64,000 nucleotides of DNA from a virus (lineage: Duplodnaviria; Caudoviricetes), in IMG/VR virus record IMGVR_UViG_3300027782_000030, positions 96,001-160,000 of that record; one strand, 5' to 3'. Position 1 is the first letter of the stretch; the number at the start of each line of letters is the position of its first letter. The position numbers and the translations under genes were made by a program. Below are positions 18,729 to 60,388 of the stretch, piece after piece. The notes beneath the pieces are model-generated. The model saw only the letters and a list, made by a program, of their open reading frames with translations, ran no database searches and was not told the DNA's origin.

Positions 18729-18744
18729 ATGATAAATAAATACT

Positions 18745-18897
18745 ATGAAAGATAAATCTTCAGAAAGCCAAGAAAATAAGGTTCCAGTACCTGAAAAAAA
18801 ACCCAATGAAAATGGAGGTTTTTATTTTTCTTCGCATCTGAAAATTACAGACCCAAATACTAAACAAGTGCTAGTGCAAAAAAGAGGCGATAACTAA
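18745..18897 (+). CDS. Small 50-aa protein (not in ORF track)
   Basis: ATG at 18745 follows TAAATAAATA. It reads MKDKSSESQENKVPVPEKKPNENGGFYFSSHLKITDPNTKQVLVQKRGDN, and its stop overlaps the next ATG (TAATG). Confidence 0.75.
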   Translation: MKDKSSESQENKVPVPEKKPNENGGFYFSSHLKITDPNTKQVLVQKRGDN

Positions 18898-19517
18898 TGT
18901 CGGTGATTACATTATCCTATAGAATAGAAGGTTTTTTGAAAATCTACGATCCAAATAATGGAGAAATATTTGTAGAAAAGAAAAACGCTATTAACTACGA
19001 AAACATGTCAGAAGCTATTGCTAATACTTTAAGTAGTCGTGGTTATGGTGAGATTTACGAAATGGCATTTGGAAATGGTGGGGCAAGCGTAGACGAAACA
19101 GGTGTGATTACATATCTACCTCCAAACACAACTGGAATTAATGCATCATTATATAACCAAACTTATGCTAAAATTGTAGATGATACTAGTGTGTTTAATT
19201 TAGATCCTACTAGAAATAAGATGACGGTTACCCATGTAACTGGAAAACTTTATACAGACATTTTGGTACAGTGTTTATTAGACTATGGCGAGCCTGCAGG
19301 ACAAGATGCATTTGATAATAGTACACAAACTGACGGGCAATATGTATTTGATGAATTGGGATTATTGGCTAATTATGGTACAGATAATCTTGGACAAGTA
19401 ATAACACGATTGTTAACTCATGTCATCTTTCATCCTGTACAAAAAAGTTTAAATAGACAAATTCAAATAGATTACACAGTGCGAATACAAAGTCTTACGA
19501 ACTTGGTAACTATTTAA
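18897..19517 (+). CDS. Hypothetical structural protein (tail/baseplate region)
   Basis: 206-aa ORF translationally coupled to the upstream small ORF; sits in the structural block. Confidence 0.7.
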   Translation: MSVITLSYRIEGFLKIYDPNNGEIFVEKKNAINYENMSEAIANTLSSRGYGEIYEMAFGNGGASVDETGVITYLPPNTTGINASLYNQTYAKIVDDTSVFNLDPTRNKMTVTHVTGKLYTDILVQCLLDYGEPAGQDAFDNSTQTDGQYVFDELGLLANYGTDNLGQVITRLLTHVIFHPVQKSLNRQIQIDYTVRIQSLTNLVTI

Positions 19518-19550
19518 GATAAATAAAAAAGATATCGGAGTAATTGAAAA

Positions 19551-20777
19551 ATGGCATATACAATTGTTAAAAGTGATGGTACAGTATTAACGACCATTCC
19601 TGATGGTACAATTAATACAACTAGCACTTCTATTGGACTGCCGGGTAGAAACTACGCAGGATATGGGCAAACATTAGATACAAATTTTGTACATCAACTA
19701 GAAAATTTTGCCGATACTACTCCACCTGCTAATCCTCTAAGAGGGCAACTTTGGTATAATACTAATAATAGTACGCTTTATGTTTGTCCAACTGACGGTG
19801 AAGCTAATTCATTAGCATGGTTGGCATTAACATCTACTTCTAGTGGTGGAACAACTACATTCGGTGCGGTGACTGTAACCGGTAATATACAATCAAATAA
19901 TATCTCTGCTGTAAATAACAGCAATGCAAACGCTGCTACATTTAGCTATCTTACTGTCTCTGCAAATGCCAATATTGCAGACGCAAATATTACTTCTTCT
20001 AATATCGGTGGATTAATAACAACTTCTATATCTACTGGATCAGCAACTACAGCTGGTACACTAACAGGAGTTTGGACAGTCTCAGGTGGTGCTGGTGGTG
20101 CAGGAGCAAACGCTGTAATTTTTAATAGCGGTGGAATTTATATTAGTAATTCCGCAGGTGGTAATTTATACGGTATTAAAACTGACAAATATATGTACGC
20201 AAACGGAGATCCTATCTCTTTTGCAGGTACATATAGTAATTCAAACGTTTCATCTTTTTTACCTACTTATAATGGCAATCTTCTTGCTGCAAACGTTCAA
20301 ACACCTATTGTTACAACCGGAGCTAATACCACTCCAGGCACTATAACAGGTAATTGGACTCTAACAACAGGATCTAGATTTAACGCAACATATGCTGACT
20401 TGGCTGAAAGATTCGAAGCCGACGATCTATATGATGCAGGTACTGTAGTTGAATTGGGCGGAGAAAGAGAAATAACCTCAGTGAAGTATGAACTAAGTGA
20501 AGATGTATTTGGCGTCATATCAAATAGCGTAGCATACTTGATGAATTCAGGGGCTGGATCAGATGCTACTCACCCTGCTGTAGCAGTAGGTGGTAGGGTA
20601 CATGTTAAAGTCACGGGTAAAGTTCATAAAGGTCAACGATTGGTAAGTGCTGGTCAAGGTATTGCTAGAGGTGCCCTAGAAGGCGAAGCGACTGCATTTA
20701 ACACAATTGGTCGTGCATTGGCTAACAAAGAATCACTAGATGTTGGTACAGTAGAAGCCATTGTTATCATACGATAA
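19551..20777 (+). CDS. Tail fibre/spike-like protein with C-terminal peptidase G2/intramolecular-chaperone-like domain
   Basis: N-terminal anchor-like segment (GRNYAGYG...ENFA...P.NPLRGQLWY) and low-complexity S/T/N/G beta-rich shaft. The C-terminus has YADLAERFE...GTVV...FGVIS...GRVHVKV...G.RLVS. SD GGAG lies upstream. Confidence 0.65.
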   Translation: MAYTIVKSDGTVLTTIPDGTINTTSTSIGLPGRNYAGYGQTLDTNFVHQLENFADTTPPANPLRGQLWYNTNNSTLYVCPTDGEANSLAWLALTSTSSGGTTTFGAVTVTGNIQSNNISAVNNSNANAATFSYLTVSANANIADANITSSNIGGLITTSISTGSATTAGTLTGVWTVSGGAGGAGANAVIFNSGGIYISNSAGGNLYGIKTDKYMYANGDPISFAGTYSNSNVSSFLPTYNGNLLAANVQTPIVTTGANTTPGTITGNWTLTTGSRFNATYADLAERFEADDLYDAGTVVELGGEREITSVKYELSEDVFGVISNSVAYLMNSGAGSDATHPAVAVGGRVHVKVTGKVHKGQRLVSAGQGIARGALEGEATAFNTIGRALANKESLDVGTVEAIVIIR

Positions 20778-20786
20778 GGATAAAAA

Positions 20787-21740
20787 ATGACTTACGCACA
20801 ATATGGAACGGTACAAGCATCAGATTTTAATACGCTAGTAGGCGGTAACCCTACTACAACATCAGGTACACTTAATGCAGTTTGGGCAACAGGTGGTACA
20901 AACGCAGGTTATGGACAAACAGCGGTAGCTAATGTGGCAGCAGGTGGTTCAGTAGCGGCGACAAGTCAATGGGCTAGTTTAGTAAATAATACTGCTAATT
21001 CTGCTTCACACCAAGGTACTTCCATCACTTCAGTTACCGCACCTGCAGCAGGTGGAACAATTACATACCTTTCTGCTATCCCTACAAATTTAACAACGAT
21101 TTATACAAGTAGATTGAACGCTGCTACACAGGGATCAACTACAACAAATACCGCTACATATGGCAGCACTTGGTCAACTGCCATTACATTTACTCACACT
21201 GTTACTTTTAGTTCAGGTGACGCAGCACGTTACTTTTTTAATGCAGGTGGACAGTTGAAAGTTACATGTGCCCATGCTAATAATACTGCAGGGATAAATC
21301 TATTATTAAATAACTTGGCAAGTAACGTAGGTACAGTAGCATTAAGCTCGCCAATAACAGGTTCTGTTACAATTGCAAGTACATCATATAATGGGGTAAC
21401 TAGAGTGGGAGGCGGTGGAAATGCACCTACAATTTCTACTAATTCAGGTTACTATGCTCTTGGAGTAGCTAATACTACTCTGTTTACTCAAACTGCTAGT
21501 ACAGGTCCTGCTGGTTATTTAGCTACATACATAAGCATAATTGCTAAGACAAACGGCACTCAAGGGTCGAACGGAGATGTAGGCAATATCATCACTATAT
21601 ACACAGTTTGGGATGAAGTTCCAGACGGTTTAACTGCTGGCACAGGTTCTGCAACTACTGTTACCATAGTGCCACCAGAAAGTGTTTATTTACCAAGTGC
21701 TAGTTGGGGAACACCTACAGTCACCGGCACCGTAGTATAA
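20787..21740 (+). CDS. Putative tail/fibre structural protein
   Basis: 317-aa T/G/S/A-rich ORF in the structural block. Confidence 0.6.
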   Translation: MTYAQYGTVQASDFNTLVGGNPTTTSGTLNAVWATGGTNAGYGQTAVANVAAGGSVAATSQWASLVNNTANSASHQGTSITSVTAPAAGGTITYLSAIPTNLTTIYTSRLNAATQGSTTTNTATYGSTWSTAITFTHTVTFSSGDAARYFFNAGGQLKVTCAHANNTAGINLLLNNLASNVGTVALSSPITGSVTIASTSYNGVTRVGGGGNAPTISTNSGYYALGVANTTLFTQTASTGPAGYLATYISIIAKTNGTQGSNGDVGNIITIYTVWDEVPDGLTAGTGSATTVTIVPPESVYLPSASWGTPTVTGTVV

Positions 21741-21788
21741 TTTTATACCACTAGTAAATATCCATCTAAATACTCGTAGGAGAGTATT

Positions 21789-22094
21789 ATGGATACTAAG
21801 ACACTAATTGCAGATGCTAAAGCTAGATTTAGCCATAATGCAGCCAAAGCTTATTTAAAAGACAAGTACGATAGCAAATTTATTGTTGCTGATCAAGGTG
21901 GACTTTGGCGCGCCAATTTAGAAACTATTAATTTTTTGAATGCAGTGACAGATGAAAGAGTTATTTTAATTGACACCTTTGACAATCCTGTAGAAGTAAA
22001 TAGACAGGAGTTAAAAGATAAGTTATATGCTGCATACAATGTTAGCATGAATAGTTGGCATCAAGAATGGGTTGAACTAGAGAATAAACGATGA
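21789..22094 (+). CDS. Hypothetical protein (possible fibre assembly chaperone)
   Basis: 101 aa with SD AGGAG. The function is a guess from its position after the fibre genes. Confidence 0.5.
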   Translation: MDTKTLIADAKARFSHNAAKAYLKDKYDSKFIVADQGGLWRANLETINFLNAVTDERVILIDTFDNPVEVNRQELKDKLYAAYNVSMNSWHQEWVELENKR

Positions 22095-22888
22095 GAGGAG
22101 TTCTCTTATTTGCGTTTAACAGCCCAAAATTTAATTACTATGACATGGCTGTGGCTACGGCAAAACGTGCTAATCATTTTTTAGGGTTACCAGTAACGTT
22201 AATAACGGATGAAGAATCACTGCCTGAAACCTCTACATATAAATTTGATAATATCATAGTAACAGAACCTGATAAAAACAACAGGCGTGATTGGGGCATG
22301 TGGATAAACAAGGGAAGATATAAAGCATATGAGTTCAGTCCATATGATGAAACTATATTGTTAGATGTAGATTATGTTATTAATTCTAATAAATTATTAG
22401 ATACTTTTAATTTACCTACAGATTTTTGTTGTCACGATACTACTAGTTTTTTAATGAATCCCGAAGCTACTCAAGAAGTACTAAGTGGATATAGTTTTAA
22501 AACTCTATGGGCTACAGTCATTACTTTTAAAAAAACTTTAAGGGCTAGGCAAGTATTTGAGTGCCTTCAAATGGTTCAACATAATTTTGACCATTATTCA
22601 AACATTCATGGGTTTATTGCTAATACCTTTCGTAACGATTACGCATTAACACTGGCCCTAAGAATTGTTAATGGACACCTAGATAGAGAAGAAGATGTTA
22701 TACCTTGGAATCTAGTACATATCGGAAAGAACACTACAATCTATCCTGAAACTGATGATGAGTTTAATGTTGAATACACTGTAATGTTTGATAATTGGAA
22801 AAGAGGAAAAATTCGTAAAGAATTCATTACTATTAAAGATACTGACTTTCATGTTATGAATAAAGAAAACATGTTGAGGCTTATATGA
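22091..22888 (+). CDS. GT-A-fold glycosyltransferase (GT8-like)
   Basis: N-terminal GVLLFA strand, ASPYDET-like motif (FSPYDETILLDVD) with DxD, and RNDYA motif; ATGA overlap with the upstream gene. Confidence 0.7.
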   Translation: MRGVLLFAFNSPKFNYYDMAVATAKRANHFLGLPVTLITDEESLPETSTYKFDNIIVTEPDKNNRRDWGMWINKGRYKAYEFSPYDETILLDVDYVINSNKLLDTFNLPTDFCCHDTTSFLMNPEATQEVLSGYSFKTLWATVITFKKTLRARQVFECLQMVQHNFDHYSNIHGFIANTFRNDYALTLALRIVNGHLDREEDVIPWNLVHIGKNTTIYPETDDEFNVEYTVMFDNWKRGKIRKEFITIKDTDFHVMNKENMLRLI

Positions 22889-23682
22889 GTAGAGGATTCG
22901 TTATAATGGCACAAAACACTAGTGAGGTAGATTATGTTAAATGTGCCGAAACATTGGCTATGAGCATTTATAAAGTAATGCCAAAAGCAAAAGTTTCTAT
23001 CATAACCAATGACAGTGTAGATAGTACTAAGTTTGATAAGATTATTCCTTTGCCATATGGTGATTTAGATATTAGTAGTAAATGGAAACTCATCAATGAT
23101 TGGCAAGTGTACGAGGCTAGCCCGTATGATGAAACTATTAAACTAGAATCAGACATTATTATCCCTAGAGATATTATGCATTGGTTCGATGTATGTGGTA
23201 AACAAGACTTAGTGCTATGCACTACTATAAGAAATTTAAAACAAGAAATTTCAACGGTGCGTGGGTATCGTAGATTCATTGATGAGAACAAACTACCTGA
23301 TGTTTATAATGCTATTACCTATTTTAAAAAATCTGACATAGCCAAAACCTTTTTTGAAATCGTAAGAAATGTTTTTGAAAATTGGGAAGACTTTAAACGT
23401 ACATTGAAATGTAATCCACAAGAGCCAGCCAGCACAGATTGGGTGTATAGCATAGCAGCACACATAATAGGTAAAGAAAAAACTACAATGCCCACATTTA
23501 CTGAAATGAGTATGATACATATGAAACAGTTTATTAACGGTAATCCAACTGAAAATTGGACTGATACCTTTATCTATGAATGTTTATCCGATCAAATAAG
23601 AGTGCAAACAGTGCCCCAACTTTATCCTTTTCATTATCATGTTAAGAACTTTTGTGATAAAATTATGCGAGGGTACGCATGA
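22885..23682 (+). CDS. GT-A-fold glycosyltransferase paralog (GT8-like)
   Basis: ASPYDETIKLESD aligns with the previous ORF (DxD is ESD here); STDWVY motif; ATGA overlap. Confidence 0.65.
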   Translation: MSRGFVIMAQNTSEVDYVKCAETLAMSIYKVMPKAKVSIITNDSVDSTKFDKIIPLPYGDLDISSKWKLINDWQVYEASPYDETIKLESDIIIPRDIMHWFDVCGKQDLVLCTTIRNLKQEISTVRGYRRFIDENKLPDVYNAITYFKKSDIAKTFFEIVRNVFENWEDFKRTLKCNPQEPASTDWVYSIAAHIIGKEKTTMPTFTEMSMIHMKQFINGNPTENWTDTFIYECLSDQIRVQTVPQLYPFHYHVKNFCDKIMRGYA

Positions 23683-24008
23683 GCGATGATGTAGTTATTA
23701 TTTGGGAAGCGCCTAAGATTATTCCTCCCGAATTTCGTTTATACTACGACGATAAGGGCAATGTTATCTGCTATACTTGTCAAAAACTAGAAGGTCAGTA
23801 TATTGTAATTGACGCATTGACATATGCTATAGCAAGACCTGATATACGAATCATCGATGGAAAAATTTCAACAGTAGCACCCAATGCTGTAGTATATAAA
23901 CTAATGCCCGCCGATGAGGGTAAGGCATGTTCTTCAGAAGATATTAGTATAATCTCAGATGGATCTATAGAAACAACGAATTGGAAATTAAAAATTTATG
24001 AGTTATGA
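23679..24008 (+). CDS. Hypothetical protein
   Basis: 109-aa ORF coupled on both sides within the operon. Confidence 0.6.
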   Translation: MSDDVVIIWEAPKIIPPEFRLYYDDKGNVICYTCQKLEGQYIVIDALTYAIARPDIRIIDGKISTVAPNAVVYKLMPADEGKACSSEDISIISDGSIETTNWKLKIYEL

Positions 24009-24948
24009 TATAGTTGATGTAGCAGATTTAGATTGCATCTATCTTAGTTATGATGAGCCACAGAAAGAAGAGTTTTGGCTTAAGATTAAAAATATGGTTC
24101 CTTGGGCTAAAAGAGTAGATGGGGTAAAGGGCAGTGATGCAGCACACAAAGCAGCCGGTGAAGCCAGCGACACCGAAAGATTTATTCTGATTGACGGTGA
24201 TAATATGCCCGATGAAAGTTTTTTCAATCTTCAACTAGACTTTACTGATAAAGATCCTAAGTACAAAAAAGCACAGTTTCGTTGGAAAGCAATCAACAGC
24301 ATCAACGGGCTTCGTTATGGCAACGGTGGTATGAGTTCTTGGACAAAAACATATGTTAGTGAAATGCGAACCCATGAACATCAAAAAGATGGTGATCTAT
24401 CTCGTGTTGCTGATTTTTGTTTAGATAGTGCTGACAATTTGTATTGGGCAATGTATGATTGTTATAGTACTACATATCCTAACTATACTCCCTTTCAAGC
24501 ATGGCGTGCTGGCTTCCGTGAAGGTGTGAAAATGTGCTTGAATCGTGGCGCAGTTCCATCTATAGATGAATTTAAAGAAACGGTAGCAAGTCGCAACTTA
24601 AATAATCTTACTATATGGCACAATGTTGGGGCAGATGTTGATAATGGATTGTGGGCCATATATGGCGCCCGCCTTGGAACATATATGACTATGCTAACTT
24701 CTTGGGAACATGTTAATGTACAGTGGTTTGACAACTACACTGTACTATGGGAAGAACACAAAGATAAAGACTCGGAGCGTGAAGCAACACTGCTAGGTGC
24801 TGCGCTACATGATAAACTTGGATTGCCTATGTGTACTCTAAGTAAAGAGCAGAGTAAATTCTTCAAACGTCATTATAACGCAGACAAGCATAATTTAGGT
24901 CCTTTGATCACCGAAATGGATGTGATCCGTAGAATCGAAGGATGGTAA
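23998..24948 (+). CDS. GT-A-like glycosyltransferase/nucleotide-diphospho-sugar transferase
   Basis: CIYLSYDEP...GVKGSDAAH...FILIDGDN (DxD) ...NGLRYGNGG...AWRAGFREGVK. Confidence 0.6.
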   Translation: MSYDIVDVADLDCIYLSYDEPQKEEFWLKIKNMVPWAKRVDGVKGSDAAHKAAGEASDTERFILIDGDNMPDESFFNLQLDFTDKDPKYKKAQFRWKAINSINGLRYGNGGMSSWTKTYVSEMRTHEHQKDGDLSRVADFCLDSADNLYWAMYDCYSTTYPNYTPFQAWRAGFREGVKMCLNRGAVPSIDEFKETVASRNLNNLTIWHNVGADVDNGLWAIYGARLGTYMTMLTSWEHVNVQWFDNYTVLWEEHKDKDSEREATLLGAALHDKLGLPMCTLSKEQSKFFKRHYNADKHNLGPLITEMDVIRRIEGW

Positions 24949-36771: not shown

Positions 36772-36803
36772 TATTTATATGGTAATATAGTCTACAATAA
36801 ATA
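36772..36803. promoter_or_regulatory. Back-to-back T4-type late-promoter motifs driving divergent genes
   Basis: TATAAATA on the - strand at 36772-36779, 7 nt from the ATG at 36764. AATAAATA on the + strand at 36796-36803, 5 nt from the ATG at 36809. Confidence 0.6.
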
Positions 36804-48236: not shown

Positions 48237-51200
48237 ATGAGAGATGTATTTTATTACGGTAAAAAACCCAACGTTCACCCAAAAGAAAAATTTGCGACTT
48301 CAATAGAAGATGCCAGGAGTCAATGTACCACTGAACATTTTTGGATAATCAATGAATACTGTGATTATCGCAATCTAGATTGGGACTTTGATTTTGAATT
48401 CTTACCCGATGAAGATGTATGGGCAGAAGACCATAACAATGTATGGCCCAGCCAACATCAAAAAGACAGTGGCACTTGGCTATGTCCAAAGAAAAACAGT
48501 GATATAATTATCTATCGTGCTGATGTTGACCCTGTTATTCGTAAGAATATAAAGAATGACAATTGGGTAATATTATATGAAATTGATGAAATTAACTTTG
48601 ATTTTAGTTGGCATCCTGATCCAACTGATCCTTCCTATACTTATGTATGGGGTAACCAATGGCACTCTGGTAAGATTATGCCTACGGTTAAATATTCCGT
48701 ACTTGGTTCGTTAGAAGTAAAATATATTGAAAATAATATTGCGATATTAGCACAATTGCCTGAAAACTTTGATATTTTTGAAGAAGTTGAGAATTTTGAT
48801 TTTAGTTGGCATCCTAATCCAACTAGTCCTCCTTACATATATGTTTGGGGTAATCAATGGAATATCCCTCAGGACAAAATATCTATTCAATATAAAGTTG
48901 ATGGTGCGACCGAACATAATTATATGGCCGAACGTGCGATTCGTAAACCATGTACAGGTAATTGGATAATACCTGATAATGTTGATACAATTGGGTTTGA
49001 CTTTAGTTGGGAACCTAGCCCAGCGGATCAACCTTATATTTACCAATTTGGCACTCAGTGGCAAAAGACAGGTGGTCCACAATATTTAACACCAGGCGTA
49101 CATAAAAATAGTGACATTAAGTATATTGATTTGCAAAAAGTAAAAATATTGCCTAATAAAGATAACTTTATTATCTTAGACAATATTATTGTAGATGATT
49201 TTGATTATAGTTGGCATTCTGATGAAACAGAAGAACCATACATATACGTATTTGGTAATAATTTATATGCGGCTGAAATTATGCCAACTATCCAGTACGT
49301 ACCTAAAAACGCAGTTAGATTAACATCAGGTAAACCAATTGAACAAATAAAATATGTCAATGACTTAGTTGCTAAATTAGGAGAGAATAGAAATAATTGG
49401 GTTATTCATCAGCCAATAGATGAAATTAAATTTGATTTTAGTTGGGTGCCTAATCCTAAAGATCCCCCTTACATATATGTTTGGGGTAACAAATATATTT
49501 CAAACATATATAAACCAACGGTTGAATATATAGTTGAAGGTGCAACTGAAATAAAATACATGGATGACAGTGTTGCTGTATTACCCGAGCTTGATCGATG
49601 GTATATACCAAATAATATTGATGATACTGGTTTTGATTACACATGGAGACCTGATCCATTAGAACCTGTATTAATTTGGCAATTTGGCACTCAGTGGCAG
49701 AAGACAGGTGGACCTAGATATACCATGCCTAGCGCTATTGAAATCAAATATATTGACAGTCAAAAAGTAAAAGCACTGCCTAACAAAAATTGGACTATAC
49801 CTAAAAATATTGATGTATCTGAATTTGATTTTAGTTGGCACCCAGATGACACTTCACCTTCTTACATATATAGATTTCCTACACAGTGGGCAATGAGTGG
49901 TGGTCCAATTTACACTGTAGTTGGAGCAACAGAAGTAAAGTATATAGATATCTTTAGGGCTAAAGCGCTACCTAATACAGACAATTGGGAATTCGATTCT
50001 AACAATATTGATTCGTCTATCTTTGATTTTAGTTGGCACCCATATGCTGAAGATGAGCCTTTCATATATCAATTTGGTACTCAATGGCAAAAGACAGGTG
50101 GTCCTAGATATTTAACTCCAGGAGTTCATAAAAATAGTCCTGTAAAATATATTGATACACGAATTATAAAAGCAAAAAGATTGCCGAACAAAAATAATTT
50201 TGTTATTTTAGATGACAATGTTATATCTGATTTTGATTATAGTTGGCATCATGATGATACTGAAGAACTTTTTATATATGTATTTGGTAACAATTTATAT
50301 TCTGCTGAAATTATGCCAACTATCCAGTACGTACCTAAAAACGCAGTTAGATTAACATCAGGTAAACCAATTGAACAAATAAAATATGTTAATGACTTAG
50401 TTGCCAAGTTAGGAGAAAATAGAAATAATTGGGTAATATATCAACCAATAGATGAATCTAAATTTGATTTTAGCTGGGTCCCCAATCCCAAAGACCCAGC
50501 TTACATATACTGTTGGGGTAACAAATTTATTTCCAATGTATATAAACCAACCATTGAATATATAGTTGAAGGTGCAACTGAAATCAAATACATGGATGAC
50601 AATGTTGTAGTAGTACCTGAAAGCGATCGGTGGTATATACCAAGTAATATTGATGATACTGGCTTTGACTATACATGGAGACCTAATCCATTAGAACCTG
50701 ATTTAATTTGGCAGTTTGGTACTCAATGGCAAAAAACCGGCGGCCCAAGATATATTATGCCCGGTGCTATTGAAGTCAAATATATTGACAGTCAAAAAGT
50801 AAAAGCACTTTCTAATAAAAATTGGACTATACCTGAAAATATAGATGTGTCTGAATTTGATTTTAGTTGGCATCCAGATGATACAAGTCCACCGTATATT
50901 TATAGATTCCCAACTCAATGGGCAATAAGCGGCGGACCTAATTATATAGTTGAAGGTGCTACTGAAATAAAATATATTGATAAGCTTAAGGCTAAAGCAC
51001 TTCCTTGTAAAGATTATTGGGATTTTAATTCTGCTATAGTTGATGAAAATAGTTTTGATTTTAGTTGGCATCCATATGCAGAAGACGAGCCTTTTATATA
51101 TCAATTTGGAACACAATGGCAGAAAACAGGTGGTCCTAGATATTTAACTCCAGGTGTTCATAAAAACAGTCCCATAAAATATATCGATACACGAATTATT

Positions 51201-54200
51201 AAATCAAAAAGATTGCCAAACAAAAATAATTTTATTATCATTGATAATAACATAATTGACAGTTTTGATTGGTCATGGCACCCTGATGAAACAGAAGAGC
51301 CATTTGTTTATATATTTGGTAATAATCAGTACTCGGCTGAGATAATGCCAACTATAAAATATGTTGTAGAAGGTGCTGCTGAAATAAAATATGTTAACGA
51401 TATAATTGCTACTTTAGGTGAAAACAAAACCTATTGGGAAATGCCTGAAGGTGTGAATATTATCAACTTTGATTTTAGTTGGGTACCTAACCCTAAAGAC
51501 CCTGCTTACATATATGAATTTGGTACTCAATGGAATGATAGAGGAGGACCAAAATATGTTCCTCCTAATAAAGGGCTTAGATTAGCATCAGGTAAACTTA
51601 TCGGTCAATATAAGTATGTCAGTGATCAAATTGCTACAGTAGGGGAAAATAAAACAAATTGGATCATACCTAATAATATTGACATTACAGGTTTTGATTT
51701 TAGTTGGGTCCCACATCCCGATGATCCGCCATATGTATATGAATTTGGTACCCAATGGCAGCAGACAGGAGGGCCCAAGTATATAGTTGAGAATGCTACT
51801 GAAGTTAAATATGTAGATATATTTAAAGTTAGAATGTTACCCAATAGTGATAATTGGGAAGTACCTGATAATATAGATAGCACTAAATTTGATTTTAGCT
51901 GGCATCCAAATTCAACTGAAGAACCCTACACATATAAATTTGGAACTCAGTGGCAAAAGACTGGAGGTCCTAGTTATTTAACACCTGGTATTCATAAAAA
52001 CAGTCCGATAAAATATATTGATAATCAAGTACTTAGTAGTATTAGATTACCCAACAAAGACAATTTTACTATATTAGATAATATTATTGTTGCTGATTTT
52101 GATTACAGTTGGCACCCTGACGAAACTGAAGAGCCGTATGTGTACGTATTTGGTAATAATTATTATCCAGCTGAGATAATGCCAACTATTCAATATGTAC
52201 CCGAAAATGTAGTCAGAGCAGCATCAGGGATACCAATTGAGCCAATTAAATATGTTAATAATGTGGTTGCAACATTAGGACAAAATAAAACTAATTGGAT
52301 AGTACATCAGCCGATAGATGAAAGTAAGTTTGATTTCAGTTGGGTACCTAATCCCAAAGATCCTCCTTATATCTATGTTTGGGGTAACAAGTATATTTCA
52401 AACATATATAAACCTACATTGGAATATGTTCCTTCTGAAATTCCTAGACTAGCAACAGGTAAACCAATTGGTCAAATTAAGTATATGGATGATGACGTTG
52501 AAGTTCTTCCCGAATGGGATAATTGGATTATACCTGAAGATATAGATAAAAATAGTTTTGATTTTACATGGAGACCTGATCCACGTGAGCCTGATTTTAT
52601 ATATCAATTTGGTACACAACATCAAAAAACAGGTGGTCCTCAGTATATTACCTTAGGTATCCCTAGACTAGCAACAGGAAAACCAATTGGCGGTCAAGTT
52701 AAATATGTTGATGGTATAAAGGCTAAAAAGCTACCTAATAAAACTAATTGGACTAATCCTAGCAAAGCGGATGTTAGTACATTTGATTTCAGTTGGCACC
52801 CGGACGATACGTCACCTCCTTACATATATCAATTTGGTACATTATTAGATAGAGAAGATGGACCTAGGTATATGACTCCAAAGACTAATGGAGTGATTGT
52901 TTATTTGGAAAAAGTTGAAAAAGAAATTGAGGAAGTTATAGAAGAATTGGTACGAGGTGATTTCCCTAAATATTATATTTCTACTACCCTTGAAGATTTG
53001 GTAAAAGAACACCCAAATGAAATGTTTTGGGCATTAAATCCTAATTTAGATTATAGTGATTTTGATTTTGATTGGAGACCTAATATTGACCGATCACAGT
53101 ATGAATCAGAATATGTTCATGTGTTTGGATCTAGTGAAAGTGAAAAAACACAGACATATCTAGTTAATAGTATAATGTGGGAGAAAGGTTTTAGAGAATT
53201 AAATTGGGTCGTTGACAAAAAACTTGATGATGTAACATTATTTAAAATGTTCAAAAAATCCGATATGTTCTTTGTAGATAGAAGTAACCTAGAATCTCAC
53301 GCAAGATTTGAACAACTTAAAGTTAAATTTCCTAATATACAAAAGACAAGATACCTAAATAGTTGGGTTGATACTATTAATCGTTGTATAAATCGTGCAA
53401 GTAGTAATTTATGTTGGATATTAAACAGTGAATTAGATTATAGTAATTTTGATTTTGATTATTATCCTAATCCTTGGCAAATGAAAATGGTCCATGTATT
53501 TGGAACACAATGGAGTCATTGGGGGTCAACATTCATGGTCAACCGAGAATCATTTGCTGAAGATACTAAATGGATTAAAATTATAGAGCATTTAAGTAAT
53601 CTTAACTTTGTAAAAGATAGAATTGCTATAGCTGATAACAATGTATATGACATATATGTTGTAGACCACGGTAATAAAGAAACAGCCACTGTGGTTGATC
53701 AATTGACTAATAAAGCGTGTGGTAAATCAGTTAATACTATTAAATATACCGAAAATTATTTACTTACATTTAGAAATCTATTAAGACAATTACCTGAAAA
53801 GAAAGAACATTATATTTGGTTATGTAGTAGCATATGTGACTATAGTAATTTTGACTTTAGTTATATATGCGATCCTTTTGCCCGTGAGCAATTGCATGTA
53901 TTTCCTAGTGATACTCAAAAATTAGGTGATACCTTTTTAGTTAATATTAATAAGTTTCGTGAATTAATTAATAATATGACTTTATTAAATGAATATAATA
54001 AAATCAATTATAATCAACATCAAAAAGTTAAAAGATTAGAACCGCCCACTATTATTACTAATTACGATTCTCATGTATTAAGTGTAATGGAAGACTTTGA
54101 TTTCCCATATGCTGTGTTTTTATCTGAAGATAATAAAGATTTAAAAGTCAATGACGAAGAGCCGATTAGTTTATGGAGCAGTGACACTAAAAACATTGTT

Positions 54201-54986
54201 GTTACTAGCACAGGTGGAACAAGAATAGTAGTTCCCAAAGAGGCTAAAAATTATGTAGATACGCAATTGTATGATTACCCCTACATTAAAAAGGCTAGTA
54301 GACTTGTGCCTAGTAATGTTTTAGACATTGTGTTTTTAAGTAATGGTGAGCCCAATGCAGATGAAAACTATGAAAACTTGTTAAAACTAACTCGTGGGTT
54401 ACCAAATAAAGTTACTAGAATAGAAGGCATAAATGGTAGAGTAGCCGCTTATCATAAAACAGCAGAGGCTAGTAATACTAACTGGTATTTTGTTGTTTGG
54501 GGTAAACTATTTGTTAATCCAAAGTTTGATTGGTCGTGGCAACCTGATAGATTACAAATACCTAAGAACTATATATTTCATGCAAAAAATCCATTGAATG
54601 GATTAATATATGGCCATCAAGCAGTTGTTGCGTATAATAAAAAATTAGCATTATCTACTAAAGGTAATCAATTAGACTTTACTATGGAAAGTCCACATCA
54701 GGTAGTACCTATATTATCAGGGACCGCTAATTATAATAGTGATGCATGGACTACATGGAGAACTGCATTTAGAGAGTGTATTAAACTTAGATATGATAAT
54801 ACTGAAGAAAGCAAAAATAGATTAAAAATTTGGTTAACTAAAGCCGATGGAAATTTTGCAGACTTTAGTATTCAAGGCGCTAACGATGCTATAGAGTATT
54901 TTGATAGTGTGGATGGTGAGTATTCTAAACTCAAACTAAGCTACGAATGGGCTTGGCTGAGAGAAAAGTTCCAAAAATTTGACTAA
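48237..54986 (+). CDS. 2,249-aa protein with 21 tandem ~70-aa Trp-rich repeats and a C-terminal GT-A-like domain
   Basis: 21 copies of FD(F/Y)(S/T)W.P....(Y/F)IY.FG..W..TGGP.Y. The C-terminus (from ~54320) aligns with 23998..24948. Confidence 0.8.
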   Translation: MRDVFYYGKKPNVHPKEKFATSIEDARSQCTTEHFWIINEYCDYRNLDWDFDFEFLPDEDVWAEDHNNVWPSQHQKDSGTWLCPKKNSDIIIYRADVDPVIRKNIKNDNWVILYEIDEINFDFSWHPDPTDPSYTYVWGNQWHSGKIMPTVKYSVLGSLEVKYIENNIAILAQLPENFDIFEEVENFDFSWHPNPTSPPYIYVWGNQWNIPQDKISIQYKVDGATEHNYMAERAIRKPCTGNWIIPDNVDTIGFDFSWEPSPADQPYIYQFGTQWQKTGGPQYLTPGVHKNSDIKYIDLQKVKILPNKDNFIILDNIIVDDFDYSWHSDETEEPYIYVFGNNLYAAEIMPTIQYVPKNAVRLTSGKPIEQIKYVNDLVAKLGENRNNWVIHQPIDEIKFDFSWVPNPKDPPYIYVWGNKYISNIYKPTVEYIVEGATEIKYMDDSVAVLPELDRWYIPNNIDDTGFDYTWRPDPLEPVLIWQFGTQWQKTGGPRYTMPSAIEIKYIDSQKVKALPNKNWTIPKNIDVSEFDFSWHPDDTSPSYIYRFPTQWAMSGGPIYTVVGATEVKYIDIFRAKALPNTDNWEFDSNNIDSSIFDFSWHPYAEDEPFIYQFGTQWQKTGGPRYLTPGVHKNSPVKYIDTRIIKAKRLPNKNNFVILDDNVISDFDYSWHHDDTEELFIYVFGNNLYSAEIMPTIQYVPKNAVRLTSGKPIEQIKYVNDLVAKLGENRNNWVIYQPIDESKFDFSWVPNPKDPAYIYCWGNKFISNVYKPTIEYIVEGATEIKYMDDNVVVVPESDRWYIPSNIDDTGFDYTWRPNPLEPDLIWQFGTQWQKTGGPRYIMPGAIEVKYIDSQKVKALSNKNWTIPENIDVSEFDFSWHPDDTSPPYIYRFPTQWAISGGPNYIVEGATEIKYIDKLKAKALPCKDYWDFNSAIVDENSFDFSWHPYAEDEPFIYQFGTQWQKTGGPRYLTPGVHKNSPIKYIDTRIIKSKRLPNKNNFIIIDNNIIDSFDWSWHPDETEEPFVYIFGNNQYSAEIMPTIKYVVEGAAEIKYVNDIIATLGENKTYWEMPEGVNIINFDFSWVPNPKDPAYIYEFGTQWNDRGGPKYVPPNKGLRLASGKLIGQYKYVSDQIATVGENKTNWIIPNNIDITGFDFSWVPHPDDPPYVYEFGTQWQQTGGPKYIVENATEVKYVDIFKVRMLPNSDNWEVPDNIDSTKFDFSWHPNSTEEPYTYKFGTQWQKTGGPSYLTPGIHKNSPIKYIDNQVLSSIRLPNKDNFTILDNIIVADFDYSWHPDETEEPYVYVFGNNYYPAEIMPTIQYVPENVVRAASGIPIEPIKYVNNVVATLGQNKTNWIVHQPIDESKFDFSWVPNPKDPPYIYVWGNKYISNIYKPTLEYVPSEIPRLATGKPIGQIKYMDDDVEVLPEWDNWIIPEDIDKNSFDFTWRPDPREPDFIYQFGTQHQKTGGPQYITLGIPRLATGKPIGGQVKYVDGIKAKKLPNKTNWTNPSKADVSTFDFSWHPDDTSPPYIYQFGTLLDREDGPRYMTPKTNGVIVYLEKVEKEIEEVIEELVRGDFPKYYISTTLEDLVKEHPNEMFWALNPNLDYSDFDFDWRPNIDRSQYESEYVHVFGSSESEKTQTYLVNSIMWEKGFRELNWVVDKKLDDVTLFKMFKKSDMFFVDRSNLESHARFEQLKVKFPNIQKTRYLNSWVDTINRCINRASSNLCWILNSELDYSNFDFDYYPNPWQMKMVHVFGTQWSHWGSTFMVNRESFAEDTKWIKIIEHLSNLNFVKDRIAIADNNVYDIYVVDHGNKETATVVDQLTNKACGKSVNTIKYTENYLLTFRNLLRQLPEKKEHYIWLCSSICDYSNFDFSYICDPFAREQLHVFPSDTQKLGDTFLVNINKFRELINNMTLLNEYNKINYNQHQKVKRLEPPTIITNYDSHVLSVMEDFDFPYAVFLSEDNKDLKVNDEEPISLWSSDTKNIVVTSTGGTRIVVPKEAKNYVDTQLYDYPYIKKASRLVPSNVLDIVFLSNGEPNADENYENLLKLTRGLPNKVTRIEGINGRVAAYHKTAEASNTNWYFVVWGKLFVNPKFDWSWQPDRLQIPKNYIFHAKNPLNGLIYGHQAVVAYNKKLALSTKGNQLDFTMESPHQVVPILSGTANYNSDAWTTWRTAFRECIKLRYDNTEESKNRLKIWLTKADGNFADFSIQGANDAIEYFDSVDGEYSKLKLSYEWAWLREKFQKFD
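48560..52900 (+). repeat. Coding tandem repeat array (~210-nt unit, 1032-nt higher-order period)
   Basis: Equivalent codons recur at an offset of 1032 nt (49683/50715; 50049/51081; 50112/51144). There is an exact 86-bp duplicate at 49272-49357 = 50304-50389. Confidence 0.85.
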
Positions 54987-55789: not shown

Positions 55790-56941
55790 ATGAATAATTT
55801 TATAGTTTATAACCCATCATCTTTGGATGGGACAGTATACAATATATTTTTTAATATTTTTGGTAGATATACAGATATCGTAGAAGATGTTAAACTGTTT
55901 AGTGGTATTTCAGTCTTAACATTAAGAGAAGATTTATTGTTAACAAAAAATCCACTAATGTTTAATTATTATGAAATTTACATGTACAGAAAATCTAAAG
56001 GGTTACCTACAAAAATTATCATTGATTGGTCATTAGAGGGTCAATGTCATAATTCAAGTTTATCAACTTTATTCAAGGAAAACGAACTTAATATTGATAA
56101 AGATATATTATTTGTACATAATGATTCTTCTAATAGAATTTGGGTTCCGTTTAATATTGGACAACAGTTAACTATTGATTACCATGCATTAGATGCATAT
56201 AAAAGGTGTATTATTACCTCTAGCAATTTGACTGACAGAACCTTAGTAAAAGACAGAAAAAATGGATTAAATTTATTAATAGGTAAATTAAAAACAAAAC
56301 ATTCTAGATTTTTGGCAGCATATTATTTTTATAAATATGATTTACTTGATAGTGCTGTATTAGGTTTGCATGTACTACCAGAAGATATTGTCACAAGGAT
56401 GAAACTACATCCTGCATATTATGATATGAACTTTTATAATAAAATTGTACCATTATTAGGACCAGCGGATTCAGTTTCTAAACTACACGATACGAATGAA
56501 GGGTGTACAGCAGAAGATGGCGGGTGGCCATTTGATCCAAACATATTTAAAAATTCTAGTATAAGCTATGTTTGTGAAACCTATGATATTGACAAAGGAA
56601 TTTTTCCATACTTAGTGACAGAAAAATTTTATAGGTCTATTATTAATAAACATCCGTTTGTAGTGCAAGCCGGTTCAGGTCAATTAAACACTGTTAAATC
56701 TTTGGGGTTTGAAACCTTTTCATCTATCATTGATGAAAGTTATAATGATTATGATGTTCTTGATTATTCACATGTTGAAAAAACTGTATTAGCCGCAAAG
56801 GATTTTTTATCAAAACTATCTAATAATGCTGATAAAATACAAGAAATTGTAGACTATAATTATAATCGTTGGCTATCAAGAAGTAAGGATGAATATGATA
56901 AGACTACTGATTTTTTTATCAGATTTATAAATAATCAGTAA
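55790..56941 (+). CDS. Uncharacterised glycosyltransferase-like protein (copy 5)
   Basis: SISYVCET...TEKFYR...HPFVV...GFETF...DESYN. Confidence 0.5.
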   Translation: MNNFIVYNPSSLDGTVYNIFFNIFGRYTDIVEDVKLFSGISVLTLREDLLLTKNPLMFNYYEIYMYRKSKGLPTKIIIDWSLEGQCHNSSLSTLFKENELNIDKDILFVHNDSSNRIWVPFNIGQQLTIDYHALDAYKRCIITSSNLTDRTLVKDRKNGLNLLIGKLKTKHSRFLAAYYFYKYDLLDSAVLGLHVLPEDIVTRMKLHPAYYDMNFYNKIVPLLGPADSVSKLHDTNEGCTAEDGGWPFDPNIFKNSSISYVCETYDIDKGIFPYLVTEKFYRSIINKHPFVVQAGSGQLNTVKSLGFETFSSIIDESYNDYDVLDYSHVEKTVLAAKDFLSKLSNNADKIQEIVDYNYNRWLSRSKDEYDKTTDFFIRFINNQ

Positions 56942-56949
56942 ATAAAAGT

Positions 56950-57262
56950 ATTGTTGTAAAAGCCGTGAGGAAAGAAGCAAGTCAAAAGACGGGCAAGACG
57001 GGGGTGCGAATCCCCCCACCTCCACCAAAAGCATACTAGAGTGACGCTGGGGAAGAGTAATAGGCAGCGGTCGATAAATCTTCCAAGTATGCTTCTGATG
57101 GGGGTGACTAGAATCGATTGACGGATGAGTAGATGAGTGGACAACACGAGAGGCGATGGACGTAATCCAAGCAAAATCTATAAATGCCAACGATGAGGTA
57201 TTTTCTTTAGCCGCATGAGGCTGAGACGGAGTAGGACAGACTCTGTAAAATAACCAACCTGT
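56950..57262 (+). ncRNA. ssrA: Circularly permuted (two-piece) tmRNA
   Basis: Acceptor piece: T-arm GGGGG-TGCGAAT-CCCCC (57000-57016), then CACCTCC-A-CCA ending at 57027. Intervening segment 57028-57099. The coding piece starts GGGGGTG at 57100 and pairs with CACCTCC, including the G3.U wobble. Resume codon GCC at 57186, tag ANDEVFSLAA* (57186-57218), stop inside the TTAGCC/GGCTGA hairpin. The outer ends are approximate. Confidence 0.9.
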
Positions 57263-57290
57263 AATAGGCCCGCAAGGGCCTATTATTTTG
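57262..57290 (+). terminator. Intrinsic terminator after tmRNA
   Basis: TAATAGGCCC-GCAA-GGGCCTATTA followed by a T-rich run. Confidence 0.85.
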
Positions 57291-57316
57291 TTGTTTTTTC
57301 GCAACAAACCCAAAAT

Positions 57317-57345
57317 TTGACATTAATTCGGCATAAGCGTATACT
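57317..57345 (+). promoter_or_regulatory. sigma70-type early promoter
   Basis: TTGACA-17 nt-TATACT. Confidence 0.8.
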
Positions 57346-57375
57346 ATATCTATAGTGAGAAACAAGGAGAGCGAA

Positions 57376-57747
57376 ATGAGCGAACTGACTTACAAGACTT
57401 GGGAAGAGTACACTCCGCTTGAGCAGGCCGCAATGACCTACTGGGACATGTACAAGGACGCTTACAATTTCCGCCCCCGTAGTGTAGACACGTCCACATG
57501 GACGCTGGCCGACTTCCAAAAGGAGTTCGAAACCCTTCAGTTTATCATCGACCGTGATGAGGCCCAGCGTATCGAGGACGAGGCTGCGGCCGTGACTCGG
57601 TTCGAAGCCCGTATTGCTAGCATCATCCAACTTGGTGCTAGGGACCGTGCAATGGCACTGCGTTGGATTCACGAGGCTGAGGACACCGGCGGCGACGATG
57701 AGTACCTCTGCTACACGGTTGGCATCCCTTATGGATACTTCAAATGA
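57376..57747 (+). CDS. Hypothetical early protein
   Basis: Start is likely 57376 (SD AAGGAG); GC-richer codons than the neighbouring structural and enzyme genes. Confidence 0.7.
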   Translation: MSELTYKTWEEYTPLEQAAMTYWDMYKDAYNFRPRSVDTSTWTLADFQKEFETLQFIIDRDEAQRIEDEAAAVTRFEARIASIIQLGARDRAMALRWIHEAEDTGGDDEYLCYTVGIPYGYFK

Positions 57748-57857
57748 CATTCACTTTAACTACCCCAACTGGTAAGGTTATGCAGTTCTATTTGCAGGCT
57801 ATGGCTGAAATGTATCAGACACTTTACCAAGGCACAATCACTAAGGTTTCTGCTTGA
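57744..57857 (+). CDS. 37-aa hypothetical protein (not in ORF track)
   Basis: ATGA overlap; MTFTLTTPTGKVMQFYLQAMAEMYQTLYQGTITKVSA. Its TGA stop lies inside the next -35 box (TTGACA). Confidence 0.55.
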   Translation: MTFTLTTPTGKVMQFYLQAMAEMYQTLYQGTITKVSA

Positions 57858-57882
57858 CATTAATTCAGGCAGTTGCTATAAT
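57854..57882 (+). promoter_or_regulatory. Consensus sigma70 promoter
   Basis: TTGACA-17 nt-TATAAT. Confidence 0.85.
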
Positions 57883-57916
57883 CTTTTTATCGTAGTTTTT
57901 TCAACAGGAGTAAGAA

Positions 57917-59017
57917 ATGGCTCAAGTATCTGACAATCTCACCGTTACTAGTGTTCAGGCCCGTAAGGCAATTCTCAAGGCGTTCAAGGTCAAACGTCCC
58001 GTGTTTCTTTGGGGTCCTCCCGGAATCGGTAAGAGTGAGGTTGTTTCCGAAATCACCGAGGAGCTCGGTGGTTTCATGATTGATTTGCGTATGGCGCAAA
58101 TGGAACCCACTGACATTCGTGGTATTCCCTTTTTCAACAAAGACAATGGCAAGATGGACTGGGCGCCCCCGGTTGATCTTCCTGACGAGGAACTTGCTAG
58201 CCAGTATCCTATCGTCTGTTTGTTCTTGGACGAGATGAACTCGGCTGCCCCTGCTGTACAGGCTGCAGGATATCAGTTGATTCTCAATCGCCGTGTTGGT
58301 AAGTACAAACTTCCTGATAACGTGGTGATTGTCGCGGCAGGTAACCGTGATAGCGACAAGGGTGTTACTTATCGTATGCCGATGCCCCTTGCTAATCGGT
58401 TCTTGCATATTGAAATGCGCCCCGACTTCACTTCGTGGCAGAACTGGGCAGTTAACAAAGGTATCCACAAGGATGTGGTTGGTTATCTGTCATTCGCTAA
58501 ACAGGATCTCTATGACTTTGATTCAAAGTCCTCTAGCCGCGCATTTGCTACTCCCCGTACTTGGTGCTTTGTCAGCGATTTGTTGAATGATGAAGAGGAT
58601 ACTGATTCCGATACCCTGTTCAACTTGGTTGCAGGTTCTGTTGGTGAAGGTCTTGCTGTTAAGTTTATGGCACACCGTAAGGTTGCGGGTCAGATGCCCG
58701 AGCCTAGCGACATTCTCGCAGGTAAGGTCAAGGAACTCCGTGTCAAGGAAGTGTCGGCAATGTACTCCCTCACGATTAGCCTGTGCTATGAATTGAAGGA
58801 TGCGCTTGACAACAAGCGTGTATCTAACAAACAGTTCCATGAAATGGCTGATAATTTCTTCAGTTACATCATGGCTAACTTTGAAACTGAGTTGGTCGTA
58901 ATGGGTGCAAAGGTCGCTCTGAAAACTTATCGTCTTCCGATCGAACCCAGTCAGTTGAAGCATTTTGATGACTTCCACAAGAAATACGGCAAGTACATTG
59001 TAGAAGCAGGTAACTGA
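57917..59017 (+). CDS. MoxR-like AAA+ ATPase
   Basis: Walker A GPPGIGKS; Walker B LFLDE; AAGN; PLANRF; SD AGGAG. Confidence 0.85.
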   Translation: MAQVSDNLTVTSVQARKAILKAFKVKRPVFLWGPPGIGKSEVVSEITEELGGFMIDLRMAQMEPTDIRGIPFFNKDNGKMDWAPPVDLPDEELASQYPIVCLFLDEMNSAAPAVQAAGYQLILNRRVGKYKLPDNVVIVAAGNRDSDKGVTYRMPMPLANRFLHIEMRPDFTSWQNWAVNKGIHKDVVGYLSFAKQDLYDFDSKSSSRAFATPRTWCFVSDLLNDEEDTDSDTLFNLVAGSVGEGLAVKFMAHRKVAGQMPEPSDILAGKVKELRVKEVSAMYSLTISLCYELKDALDNKRVSNKQFHEMADNFFSYIMANFETELVVMGAKVALKTYRLPIEPSQLKHFDDFHKKYGKYIVEAGN

Positions 59018-59020
59018 TCA

Positions 59021-59045
59021 AAGGGGAGGCAACTCCCCTTTTTTC
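59021..59045 (+). terminator. Intrinsic terminator
   Basis: AAGGGGAG-GCAA-CTCCCCTT followed by TTTT. Confidence 0.8.
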
Positions 59046-59047
59046 AT

Positions 59048-59076
59048 TTGCAATTAAATACGGTATATGTTACAAT
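59048..59076 (+). promoter_or_regulatory. sigma70-type promoter (extended -10)
   Basis: TTGCAA-17 nt-TACAAT with TG at 59068-59069; TAAATA in the spacer. Confidence 0.65.
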
Positions 59077-59104
59077 ATAGCATATATACGATAAAGGAGT
59101 AGGT

Positions 59105-60388
59105 ATGAGTGATGTAGTCGCCCCAACTAAAAAACGCAAGCGCAGTAAAAAATTTGAGAACTTGGTCGGTCCTACCGACGCTAAAGTAGACTTCAATGCC
59201 CGTGAGCGGTTGGTAACTGCCCGCATTGGTCTGCTTCTCCGTCATTCATTCTTTGGTAACCTTGCGACCCGTATGCAACTGGTTAACGCCGATGAATGGT
59301 GTAGTACAGCCGCTACCGACGGCTTGAAATTCTATTACAATTCTCGGTTCATTATGATGCTAAAGCCCAAGGAAGTTGAATTCTTGGTTGGGCATGAAGT
59401 GCTCCACGTAGTCTACGATCATATCGGTCGTCGAGGCAATCGTGATCCCCAACTTTGGAACATTGCTGATGACTACGCCGTTAATGCCGATCTAAAACGG
59501 CACAAGGTCGGTGAGTTTATTAAAACCGTTCCTTGCTTGTACGAAGCAAAATACGACGGGAAGTCTGCCGAAGAAATCTATGATGACCTTTACGAAAAGG
59601 CAGAAAAGATTAACGTCGAGGATTTGATCGACCAAATGATTGATGATCATATGGAAGGTGAAAGTCAAGGTGAGAGTGACGGCGAAGAAATTGACGGTAG
59701 CGGTAAGGGCAAAGGTCGTCCTAAGATGAGCCCTGAGGAGCGTGAGCGTGTACGTCAGGAAGTCAAGCAGGCTATCATCAATGCCGCACAAGGTGCAGAA
59801 GCAGGTTCTGTTCCTAAAGGTGTTGAGCGGTTGATCAAACATCATACTAATCCAGTAATGCCTTGGCGTGAGTTGATTCAAACTAACTTGACCAGTTCTA
59901 TTCGTACCGACTTTAGTTTTATTCGCCCTAATCGTCGCGGTTGGCACATGGATGCTATCATGCCTGGTATGACCCCGGGTGAAGAAATTGATGTTGTGGT
60001 TAGCCTTGATATGTCAGGGTCTATCACTGATAAACAAGGACAGGCATTCTTAGGTGAGATTGCAGGTATGATGGATGCCTTTGACGGATACAAAGTACAT
60101 GTATTCTGTTTTGATACAGAAATCTACAATCCACAAGACTTTACCAGCGAGAACCTAGATTCAATTGATTCATATGAACCAGTTGGTGGCGGTGGTACTG
60201 ACTTTGATGCTATCTTCGGCTATCTTAAAGAAAACGCAATCGAACCAAAACGTTTGATTGTATTTACAGATGGTTATCCTTGCGGTAGTTGGGGAGATCC
60301 TGACTATTGCGATACGACTTGGATCATTCATGGTGATAAGGATCCGAACCCCCCGTTTGGGACTTTCGCTATCTATGACGAGAAGTGA
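59105..60388 (+). CDS. HExxH metallopeptidase-like + VWA domain protein (DUF2201-like MoxR partner)
   Basis: HEVLH; C-terminal MIDAS DMSGS ... GGGGTDF ... VFTDG. Confidence 0.85.
   Translation: MSDVVAPTKKRKRSKKFENLVGPTDAKVDFNARERLVTARIGLLLRHSFFGNLATRMQLVNADEWCSTAATDGLKFYYNSRFIMMLKPKEVEFLVGHEVLHVVYDHIGRRGNRDPQLWNIADDYAVNADLKRHKVGEFIKTVPCLYEAKYDGKSAEEIYDDLYEKAEKINVEDLIDQMIDDHMEGESQGESDGEEIDGSGKGKGRPKMSPEERERVRQEVKQAIINAAQGAEAGSVPKGVERLIKHHTNPVMPWRELIQTNLTSSIRTDFSFIRPNRRGWHMDAIMPGMTPGEEIDVVVSLDMSGSITDKQGQAFLGEIAGMMDAFDGYKVHVFCFDTEIYNPQDFTSENLDSIDSYEPVGGGGTDFDAIFGYLKENAIEPKRLIVFTDGYPCGSWGDPDYCDTTWIIHGDKDPNPPFGTFAIYDEK

Follow-up and report, generated by a model that had tools for sequence, protein, structure and literature searches.

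Phage-borne tmRNAs were tabulated in 2014 (PMC4131195), and huge phages carrying tmRNA together with SmpB were described in 2020 (PMC7162821). In 2022, Buchholz et al. reported the two-piece tmRNA of the OM43 phage Melnitz and, in a set of 133 unique phage tmRNAs, counted 53 two-piece forms, most of them aquatic (PMC9004378). The Melnitz tmRNA is of the alpha type though its host lies on the beta branch, a mismatch between type and host, and permuted forms also occur in Stenotrophomonas phages, whose hosts carry one-piece tmRNA (PMC9004378). The tmRNA database of 2025 contains 79 phage sequences and introduced the Rfam model RF04321 (PMC11915505). In bacteria, the beta two-piece tmRNA (RF01850) is found in Accumulibacter, Methyloversatilis and other Rhodocyclaceae. 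The basic biology of the phage two-piece tmRNA is already published; the gene described here is a further example rather than the first of its kind, and alone it opens no new question. Newly added here are the phage-only distribution of its tag, its mixture of beta-like features with a G at T-loop position 55 (G55), and the inconsistent Rfam labels within its family.

The gene is located at 56952–57296 on the plus strand of a 64,000-nucleotide stretch of viral DNA (the window), corresponding to 96001–160000 of a 200,570-bp IMG/VR virus record. Both sequence reading and an Rfam scan identify it as a circularly permuted (two-piece) tmRNA gene. Full-length matches were obtained with tmRNA_permuted (RF04321; 111.5 bits against a cut-off of 47, E 6e-21, 56966–57218) and beta_tmRNA (RF01850; 98.2 bits against a cut-off of 84, E 1e-28, 56929–57288), and since both exceed the curated gathering score, the resemblance is not a matter of chance; the beta model wins the clan competition with 98.2 bits. 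The two-piece permuted tmRNA proposed in an earlier note, made from the letters alone, is thereby confirmed as real, and the gene is probably functional. The particulars of that note also hold: the CCA ending at 57027 and the 5' half beginning at 57100 can be read directly from the sequence, the G3·U pair of the 7-bp acceptor stem is G57102·U57021, and the frame 57186–57218 encodes exactly ANDEVFSLAA. Covariance models and ARAGORN had been named there as checks. Both models accept the gene, and ARAGORN, run on both the window and the entire record, reported 21 tRNAs and no tmRNA at this locus or elsewhere, so that pipelines relying on ARAGORN only would overlook such a gene. The coordinates of all features are collected in Table 1.

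Table 1. Features of the permuted tmRNA gene, in window coordinates.
Feature	Position	Strand	Remarks
TATAAATA, T4-late-promoter-like box	56926..56933	+	within the final codons of the ORF before the gene
TAAATA, alternative -10-like box	56939..56944	+	7 nt ahead of the first helix strand
Acceptor piece	56952..57027	+	outer P2 strand, hairpin, P2a strand, T arm, acceptor strand, ACCA
Outer P2 strand UGUUG(U)	56952-57	+	from comparison with L003 and beta tmRNAs
Internal hairpin CCGU/ACGG	56963-66 / 56989-92	+	
P2a strand	56992-96	+	
T arm	57000..57016	+	5-bp stem (57000-04 / 57012-16) and 7-nt loop UGCGAAU
3' acceptor strand CACCUCC	57017-23	+	pairs with 57100-06
Discriminator A	57024	+	
Encoded CCA	57025-27	+	
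Intervening sequence, 72 nt	57028..57099	+	own 9-bp closing stem; predicted to be removed
Coding piece	57100..57296	+	5' acceptor strand, D-loop analogue, P2, PK1, tag, two hairpins, terminator
5' acceptor strand GGGGGUG	57100-06	+	seven pairs including G57102·U57021 (G3·U70)
P2 partner strand CAACA	57142-46	+	pairs with UGUUG 56952-56
PK1 region, contains CGAGAGGCGAUGGACG	57147..57169	+	candidate pairing UGGA 57157-60 / UCCA 57166-69
Tag frame	57186..57218	+	GCC AAC GAT GAG GTA TTT TCT TTA GCC GCA TGA; ANDEVFSLAA
Resume codon GCC	57186	+	UAUAAAU just before
Stop codon TGA	57216-18	+	
Stop-codon-enclosing helix UUUAGCC/GGCUGAG	57206..57246	+	predicted, MFE fold
7-bp hairpin	57226-46	+	predicted, MFE fold
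Intrinsic terminator	57261..57296	+	11-pair stem (57261-86), 4-nt loop, T run

The tRNA-Ala-like domain is complete, comprising the 7-bp acceptor stem, G3·U70, the discriminator A and the encoded CCA. Both of its stems covary in relatives, the acceptor stem as GGGGGUG/CACCUCC, GGGGCUG/CAGCUCC and GGGGGCG/CGCCUCC, and the T stem as GGGGG/CCCCC, GGCGG/CCGCC, GCGGG/CCCGC, GUGGG/CCCAC and GCCGG/CCGGC. RNAalifold, applied to 85 diverse phage permuted tmRNAs, found no helices beyond the T arm and the acceptor stem, and neither a plain MFE fold nor cofolding recovered P2, which was therefore placed by comparison with the nearest viral relative (L003) and the bacterial beta sequences. The outer P2 helix, misplaced by cmscan owing to an insertion of ~15 nt, displays a compensatory change, with UGUUG/CAACA in the window versus UGCUG/CAGCA in L003, the beta consensus being gGUUG/CAACc. 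Adjacent to this helix are an A-rich bulge and then the internal hairpin, with CCGU/ACGG here and CCGG/CCGG in Accumulibacter. In the MFE fold of the precursor, the spacer is predicted to form a separate hairpin whose 9-bp closing stem prolongs the acceptor stem, and it contains no ORF of meaningful size.

Two elements of the body are weaker. P2a has only 3–5 Watson-Crick pairs with purine-purine mismatches (A96-U18, A95-U19, C94-G20, a G·A mismatch and G92-C22) versus 6–7 pairs in relatives. Although the PK1 stretch CGAGAGGCGAUGGACG is identical to the two-piece tmRNA of Accumulibacter at 14 of 16 positions, only 2–3 pairs plus UGGA/UCCA can be drawn for its stem, and the pseudoknot pairing is a candidate. 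The gene resembles the bacterial beta two-piece tmRNAs in gene order, in the internal hairpin of the acceptor piece, in the outer P2 helix with a bulge of 4–5 nt after it, in the sequence of the PK1 stretch and in the ANDE-x-F-x-LAA style of the tag. The bacterial examples differ in scoring ~164 bits with RF04321 against 111 bits here, in the T loop UUCGAUU, in a spacer of 3–21 nt against 72 nt, and in the tag ANDERFALAA, whereas the window gene belongs to a phage and has a low GC content.

The T loop UGCGAAU carries G55, where tRNAs and tmRNAs normally have U55, and thus departs at this position from the canonical pattern U54 U55 C56 R A N N, as do many phage permuted tmRNAs. More than 120 viral contigs bear the T-arm/acceptor pattern; 69 of the 70 with G55 are permuted, versus 24 permuted and 36 non-permuted contigs with U55. 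The Rfam alpha consensus loop GGCGGUA likewise has G55, whereas UUCGAUU is the consensus of the beta and merged models, and the window gene accordingly combines a beta-like body (PK1, outer P2 and tag) with an alpha-like T-loop position. A UGCRAWU loop was found in 0 of 401 sampled Pseudomonadota genomes, in a pattern search that is weak since it had no U55 positive control.

Among described phages, the Methylophilales phage Melnitz and the pelagimyophage-like contigs (PMC9004378) share with the window phage a permuted ssrA in a T4-like aquatic myophage, a stand-alone transcription unit and, as far as reported, no phage SmpB. The Melnitz tmRNA differs in its alpha type and in its glutamine riboswitch, as the Rfam scan detected no riboswitch in the window, and the window phage is a jumbo phage of ~350 kb from another T4-like lineage. 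The cultured Sinorhizobium phage Phosso (PV764938.1), also a jumbo phage with a permuted tmRNA, has a major capsid protein 65% identical to that of the window phage. Its tmRNA (349596–350198, minus strand) is of the alpha type, in agreement with the alphaproteobacterial host, and scores 108 bits with RF01849 and 113 bits with RF04321, with the T loop GGCGGUA and the tag ANDNVSTKVALAA. Its spacer is ~370 nt according to cmscan (CCA at ~L269:2042 and 5' acceptor strand GGGGCUG at ~L269:1628, gene at L269:1501–2103 on the minus strand). Several ORFs of 40–57 codons lie in the Phosso spacer. The GenBank record of Phosso has no annotation at the tmRNA locus.

The source of the window is a freshwater T4-like jumbo phage with ~33% GC, the tmRNA gene itself having 46–48%. 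CheckV estimates the record to be 58% complete, which implies a genome of ~350 kb, and the stretch 55800–59000 was detected in 16 or more freshwater metagenome runs that belong to many different studies. The claim that the gene is phage-encoded agrees with the IMG/VR assignment, the T4-type gp23 capsid gene and the 21 tRNA genes. The best capsid relatives are all jumbo myoviruses of Proteobacteria, namely Vibrio phage 2.275.O (67%), the Pseudomonas PA5oct group (66%), Phosso and the E. coli 121Q-like phages (62%). When the gene and two relatives were compared by BLASTN with 50,697 phage records, only the T arms of other phages matched, so there is no close isolate among them. The 21 tRNA genes form one block at 9257–24110 of the record (minus strand), which includes no tRNA-Ala despite the alanine-accepting tmRNA. 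No match to SmpB (PF01668) was found in the 58%-complete record of 200 kb, and the RNA is therefore assumed to use host SmpB.

The upstream neighbour of the tmRNA gene is a 383-aa ORF without known function, and the downstream neighbour is a 130-aa gene with a PHROG match only. Some 0.6 kb downstream, at 57917–60388 on the plus strand, a gene for a MoxR-like AAA ATPase (PHROG 1297) is followed by one for a putative metallopeptidase (DUF2201) that has a VWA-like domain and for which the PHROG 1314 label of 'HNH endonuclease' is an apparent misnomer. The annotations of these four neighbours suggest no functional link with the tmRNA. Giant ORFs are also present on the plus strand, one at 3–18728 (>6,241 codons, running off the window start) and another at 48237–54986 (2,249 codons).

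The tag was searched for as any coding of ANDEVFSLAA followed by a stop. It occurs in 0 of 185,579 bacterial and archaeal species genomes (one genome each) and in 16 other viral contigs, 15 of which are Rfam-confirmed permuted tmRNAs (86–132 bits), while the sixteenth (L014) is cut by the contig end. The tag is also absent from the supplements of PMC11915505 and PMC9004378. Six different codings of the peptide occur, with Ser as TCT in some and as AGC in others, a count that is biased as a measure of selection because the pattern forced the peptide. Spacers among the relatives range from 11 to ~100 nt. Clan competition is won by the beta model for L003, L005, L007 and L011 and by the alpha model for most others, so the Rfam labels are inconsistent within the same-tag family.

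The nearest relative, L003, lies on a 27.8-kb contig rated 8% complete and therefore also comes from a jumbo phage. The same-tag set further includes a complete 162-kb phage whose capsid protein is only 38% identical to that of the window phage, so the tmRNA occurs in at least two distinct T4-like lineages. In smaller T4-like phages (L005, L007, L010, L011, L017 and L004) the tmRNA is located between a conserved gene pair, whose homologues are ~145 kb apart in the window phage (C1:196323–196823 and C1:51360–51700), and the context of the tmRNA thus differs in the jumbo phage. The genes flanking the tmRNA in the window do not stand beside it in the family loci, which have no neighbour in common with it.

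When the pattern was relaxed to ANDE-x-F-x-LAA, more than 120 genome matches were obtained, nearly all from Burkholderiales, which bears out the description of this tag style as betaproteobacterial. The tags are almost all ANDERFALAA on standard one-piece tmRNAs, and the permuted form is limited to five of Rhodocyclaceae type. A permuted tmRNA with the tag ANDEVFALAA was found on NZ_JBDOPO010000284.1 (L125; 2624 bp, low coverage, 41% GC) in a Rubritalea (Verrucomicrobiota) MAG. As the same MAG has other tmRNA-like matches on another contig, this piece is probably a mis-binned phage fragment.

The betaproteobacterial host that the earlier note had deduced from the tag did not find the same backing, given the lack of the exact tag in all species genomes searched and the scoring of same-tag relatives as either alpha or beta. 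Nor is derivation from a betaproteobacterial genome borne out, with none of the species genomes searched bearing the same tag and a T loop off the beta consensus. A host of this class is possible, at slightly less than even odds. The mismatch seen in Melnitz likewise calls for caution in assigning hosts from tmRNA type.

The motif TATAAATA, the T4 late-promoter consensus, is present where the earlier note had reported it, at 56926–56933. It is depleted in the window (4 copies versus 17.9 expected) and in the 200-kb record (18 versus ~46 expected), where 11 of the 18 copies are outside long ORFs, and several relatives likewise have it shortly ahead of their tmRNA. This depletion and placement make a role as a promoter motif of the phage plausible. 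Another copy, at 36772–36779 on the minus strand, directly precedes a minus-strand operon starting at 36764. TAAATA occupies the position of the -10 box in the Rfam beta_tmRNA consensus and may represent an alternative promoter box for the tmRNA. Expression late in infection, for which the TATAAATA motif is the one pointer, and an anti-defence role of the RNA, both raised in the earlier note, are hypotheses.

The terminator noted downstream was recovered as the 11-pair stem with its T run, the only one in the 800-nt region scanned versus 0.3 expected from shuffles. The next gene has its own strong sigma-70-like promoter (57317–57345), just as the tmRNA has its own terminator. Transcription of the gene in a close strain is suggested by a lake metatranscriptome (X19), in which two contigs ~97% identical to the tmRNA gene cover 56964–57142 with the spacer included (depth 12.9, 4 differences) and 57113–57256 (depth 33.5, 4 differences). 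No X19 contig covers the ~450 nt on either side (56500–56950 and 57279–57700), and coverage without flanks fits an abundant stable RNA. The contig that spans the spacer points to unprocessed precursor or to the presence of DNA; no processed ends were seen, which assembled contigs cannot show. The helix map of the acceptor piece begins at 56952 and the RNA contigs at 56964. An adapter remnant directly before 56964 in two contigs is a weak hint that the RNA 5' end might lie there, leaving out the outer P2 strand. The lake metatranscriptomes X17 and X20 yielded only a 51-nt piece from a relative (window 57142–57192, 5 differences), and run X18 gave no contig that could be placed here. The X17 and X20 contigs share the stretch from PK1 to the resume codon with the window, have other flanks, and continue past GCC AAC G roughly as ANANTFEYFKVP, which reads as another related tmRNA with a different, longer tag.

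The mechanism proposed here follows tmRNA elsewhere, with the sequence features, conservation and presence in an RNA library established for the locus itself. Transcription would start at an adjacent upstream promoter (TATAAATA, TAAATA or both) and yield a single precursor ending at the terminator. Host tRNA-processing enzymes would then act on it, with RNase P cutting before G57100 and 3' trimming halting at CCA57027, and the loss of the hairpin spacer would leave acceptor and coding pieces joined by the acceptor stem and P2. Host alanyl-tRNA synthetase would charge the RNA through G3·U70 and A73, and with SmpB and EF-Tu it would enter ribosomes stalled on broken mRNAs. Translation would resume at GCC57186 and append (A)ANDEVFSLAA, whose LAA end would mark the product for proteases of the ClpXP type. 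The phage would probably benefit from a ribosome pool kept free while it degrades host nucleic acids and turns off transcription of host ssrA.

The preferred reading, with a probability of about 0.85, is that the freshwater T4-like jumbo phage has here a functioning, circularly permuted ssrA gene. It draws on the full-length Rfam matches, the Ala identity elements, the covariation, the same-tag contigs, the terminator, the X19 RNA and the documented phage tmRNAs. It is weakened by the missing SmpB, G55, the weak P2a, the short PK1 stem, the score of 111 versus ~164 bits and the spacer-spanning RNA contig. Part of this would also suit a decoy or modulator that soaks up host SmpB, AlaRS or EF-Tu or competes with host tmRNA, thereby blocking or re-routing trans-translation: no phage SmpB was found in the incomplete record, the T loop is unusual, P2a and PK1 are weaker than in cellular tmRNAs, and there is a precedent in mycobacteriophage DS6A, whose RNA consists of the tRNA-like domain only and for which a decoy-type role was suggested (cited in PMC4131195 and PMC11915505). 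However, the tag frame, resume context, stop and LAA end, all needless for a pure decoy, are kept in a divergent family, and such a role is improbable.

Phages are known to acquire ssrA fragments through integration at tmRNA genes, and in many viral contigs nothing but the 3' end of a standard tmRNA is present (the 36 non-permuted matches), so the gene might be imagined as a passenger without a function in infection, either a recently captured or decaying cellular copy or what is left of an integration site. The chance of this is very small, because the gene is complete with its own terminator, its tag is confined to viral contigs among the genomes searched, one RNA library contains it but not its flanks, and it is conserved across distinct phage lineages despite its high GC in a 33% GC genome. 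Hardly any weight falls on the region being a protein gene with only secondary RNA likeness. A 145-codon minus-strand ORF with a TTG start does exist at 56876–57313, but it has no Pfam or PHROG match, the plus strand fits two RNA models at E ≤1e-20, and the stems covary while spacers of 11 to ~100 nt would break any frame.

As a working permuted ssrA gene, the locus adds a freshwater jumbo phage to the phages that carry their own ribosome-rescue RNA. ARAGORN-based annotation overlooks it and similar genes, for example the unannotated one of Phosso. The phage-only tag and the mixed alpha and beta features warn against predicting phage hosts from tmRNA type or tag style. A more speculative and rather doubtful proposal is that the ANDEVFSLAA tmRNAs form a phage-restricted lineage decoupled from host ssrA, with a beta-like body and a G55 loop, which moves between unrelated T4-like phages of differing genome size and uses a tag unused by the sampled bacteria. 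If true, the tag, and perhaps the T loop, would be tuned to a phage-specific purpose, for example to give tagged proteins another fate or to evade some host factor whose target is cellular tmRNA.
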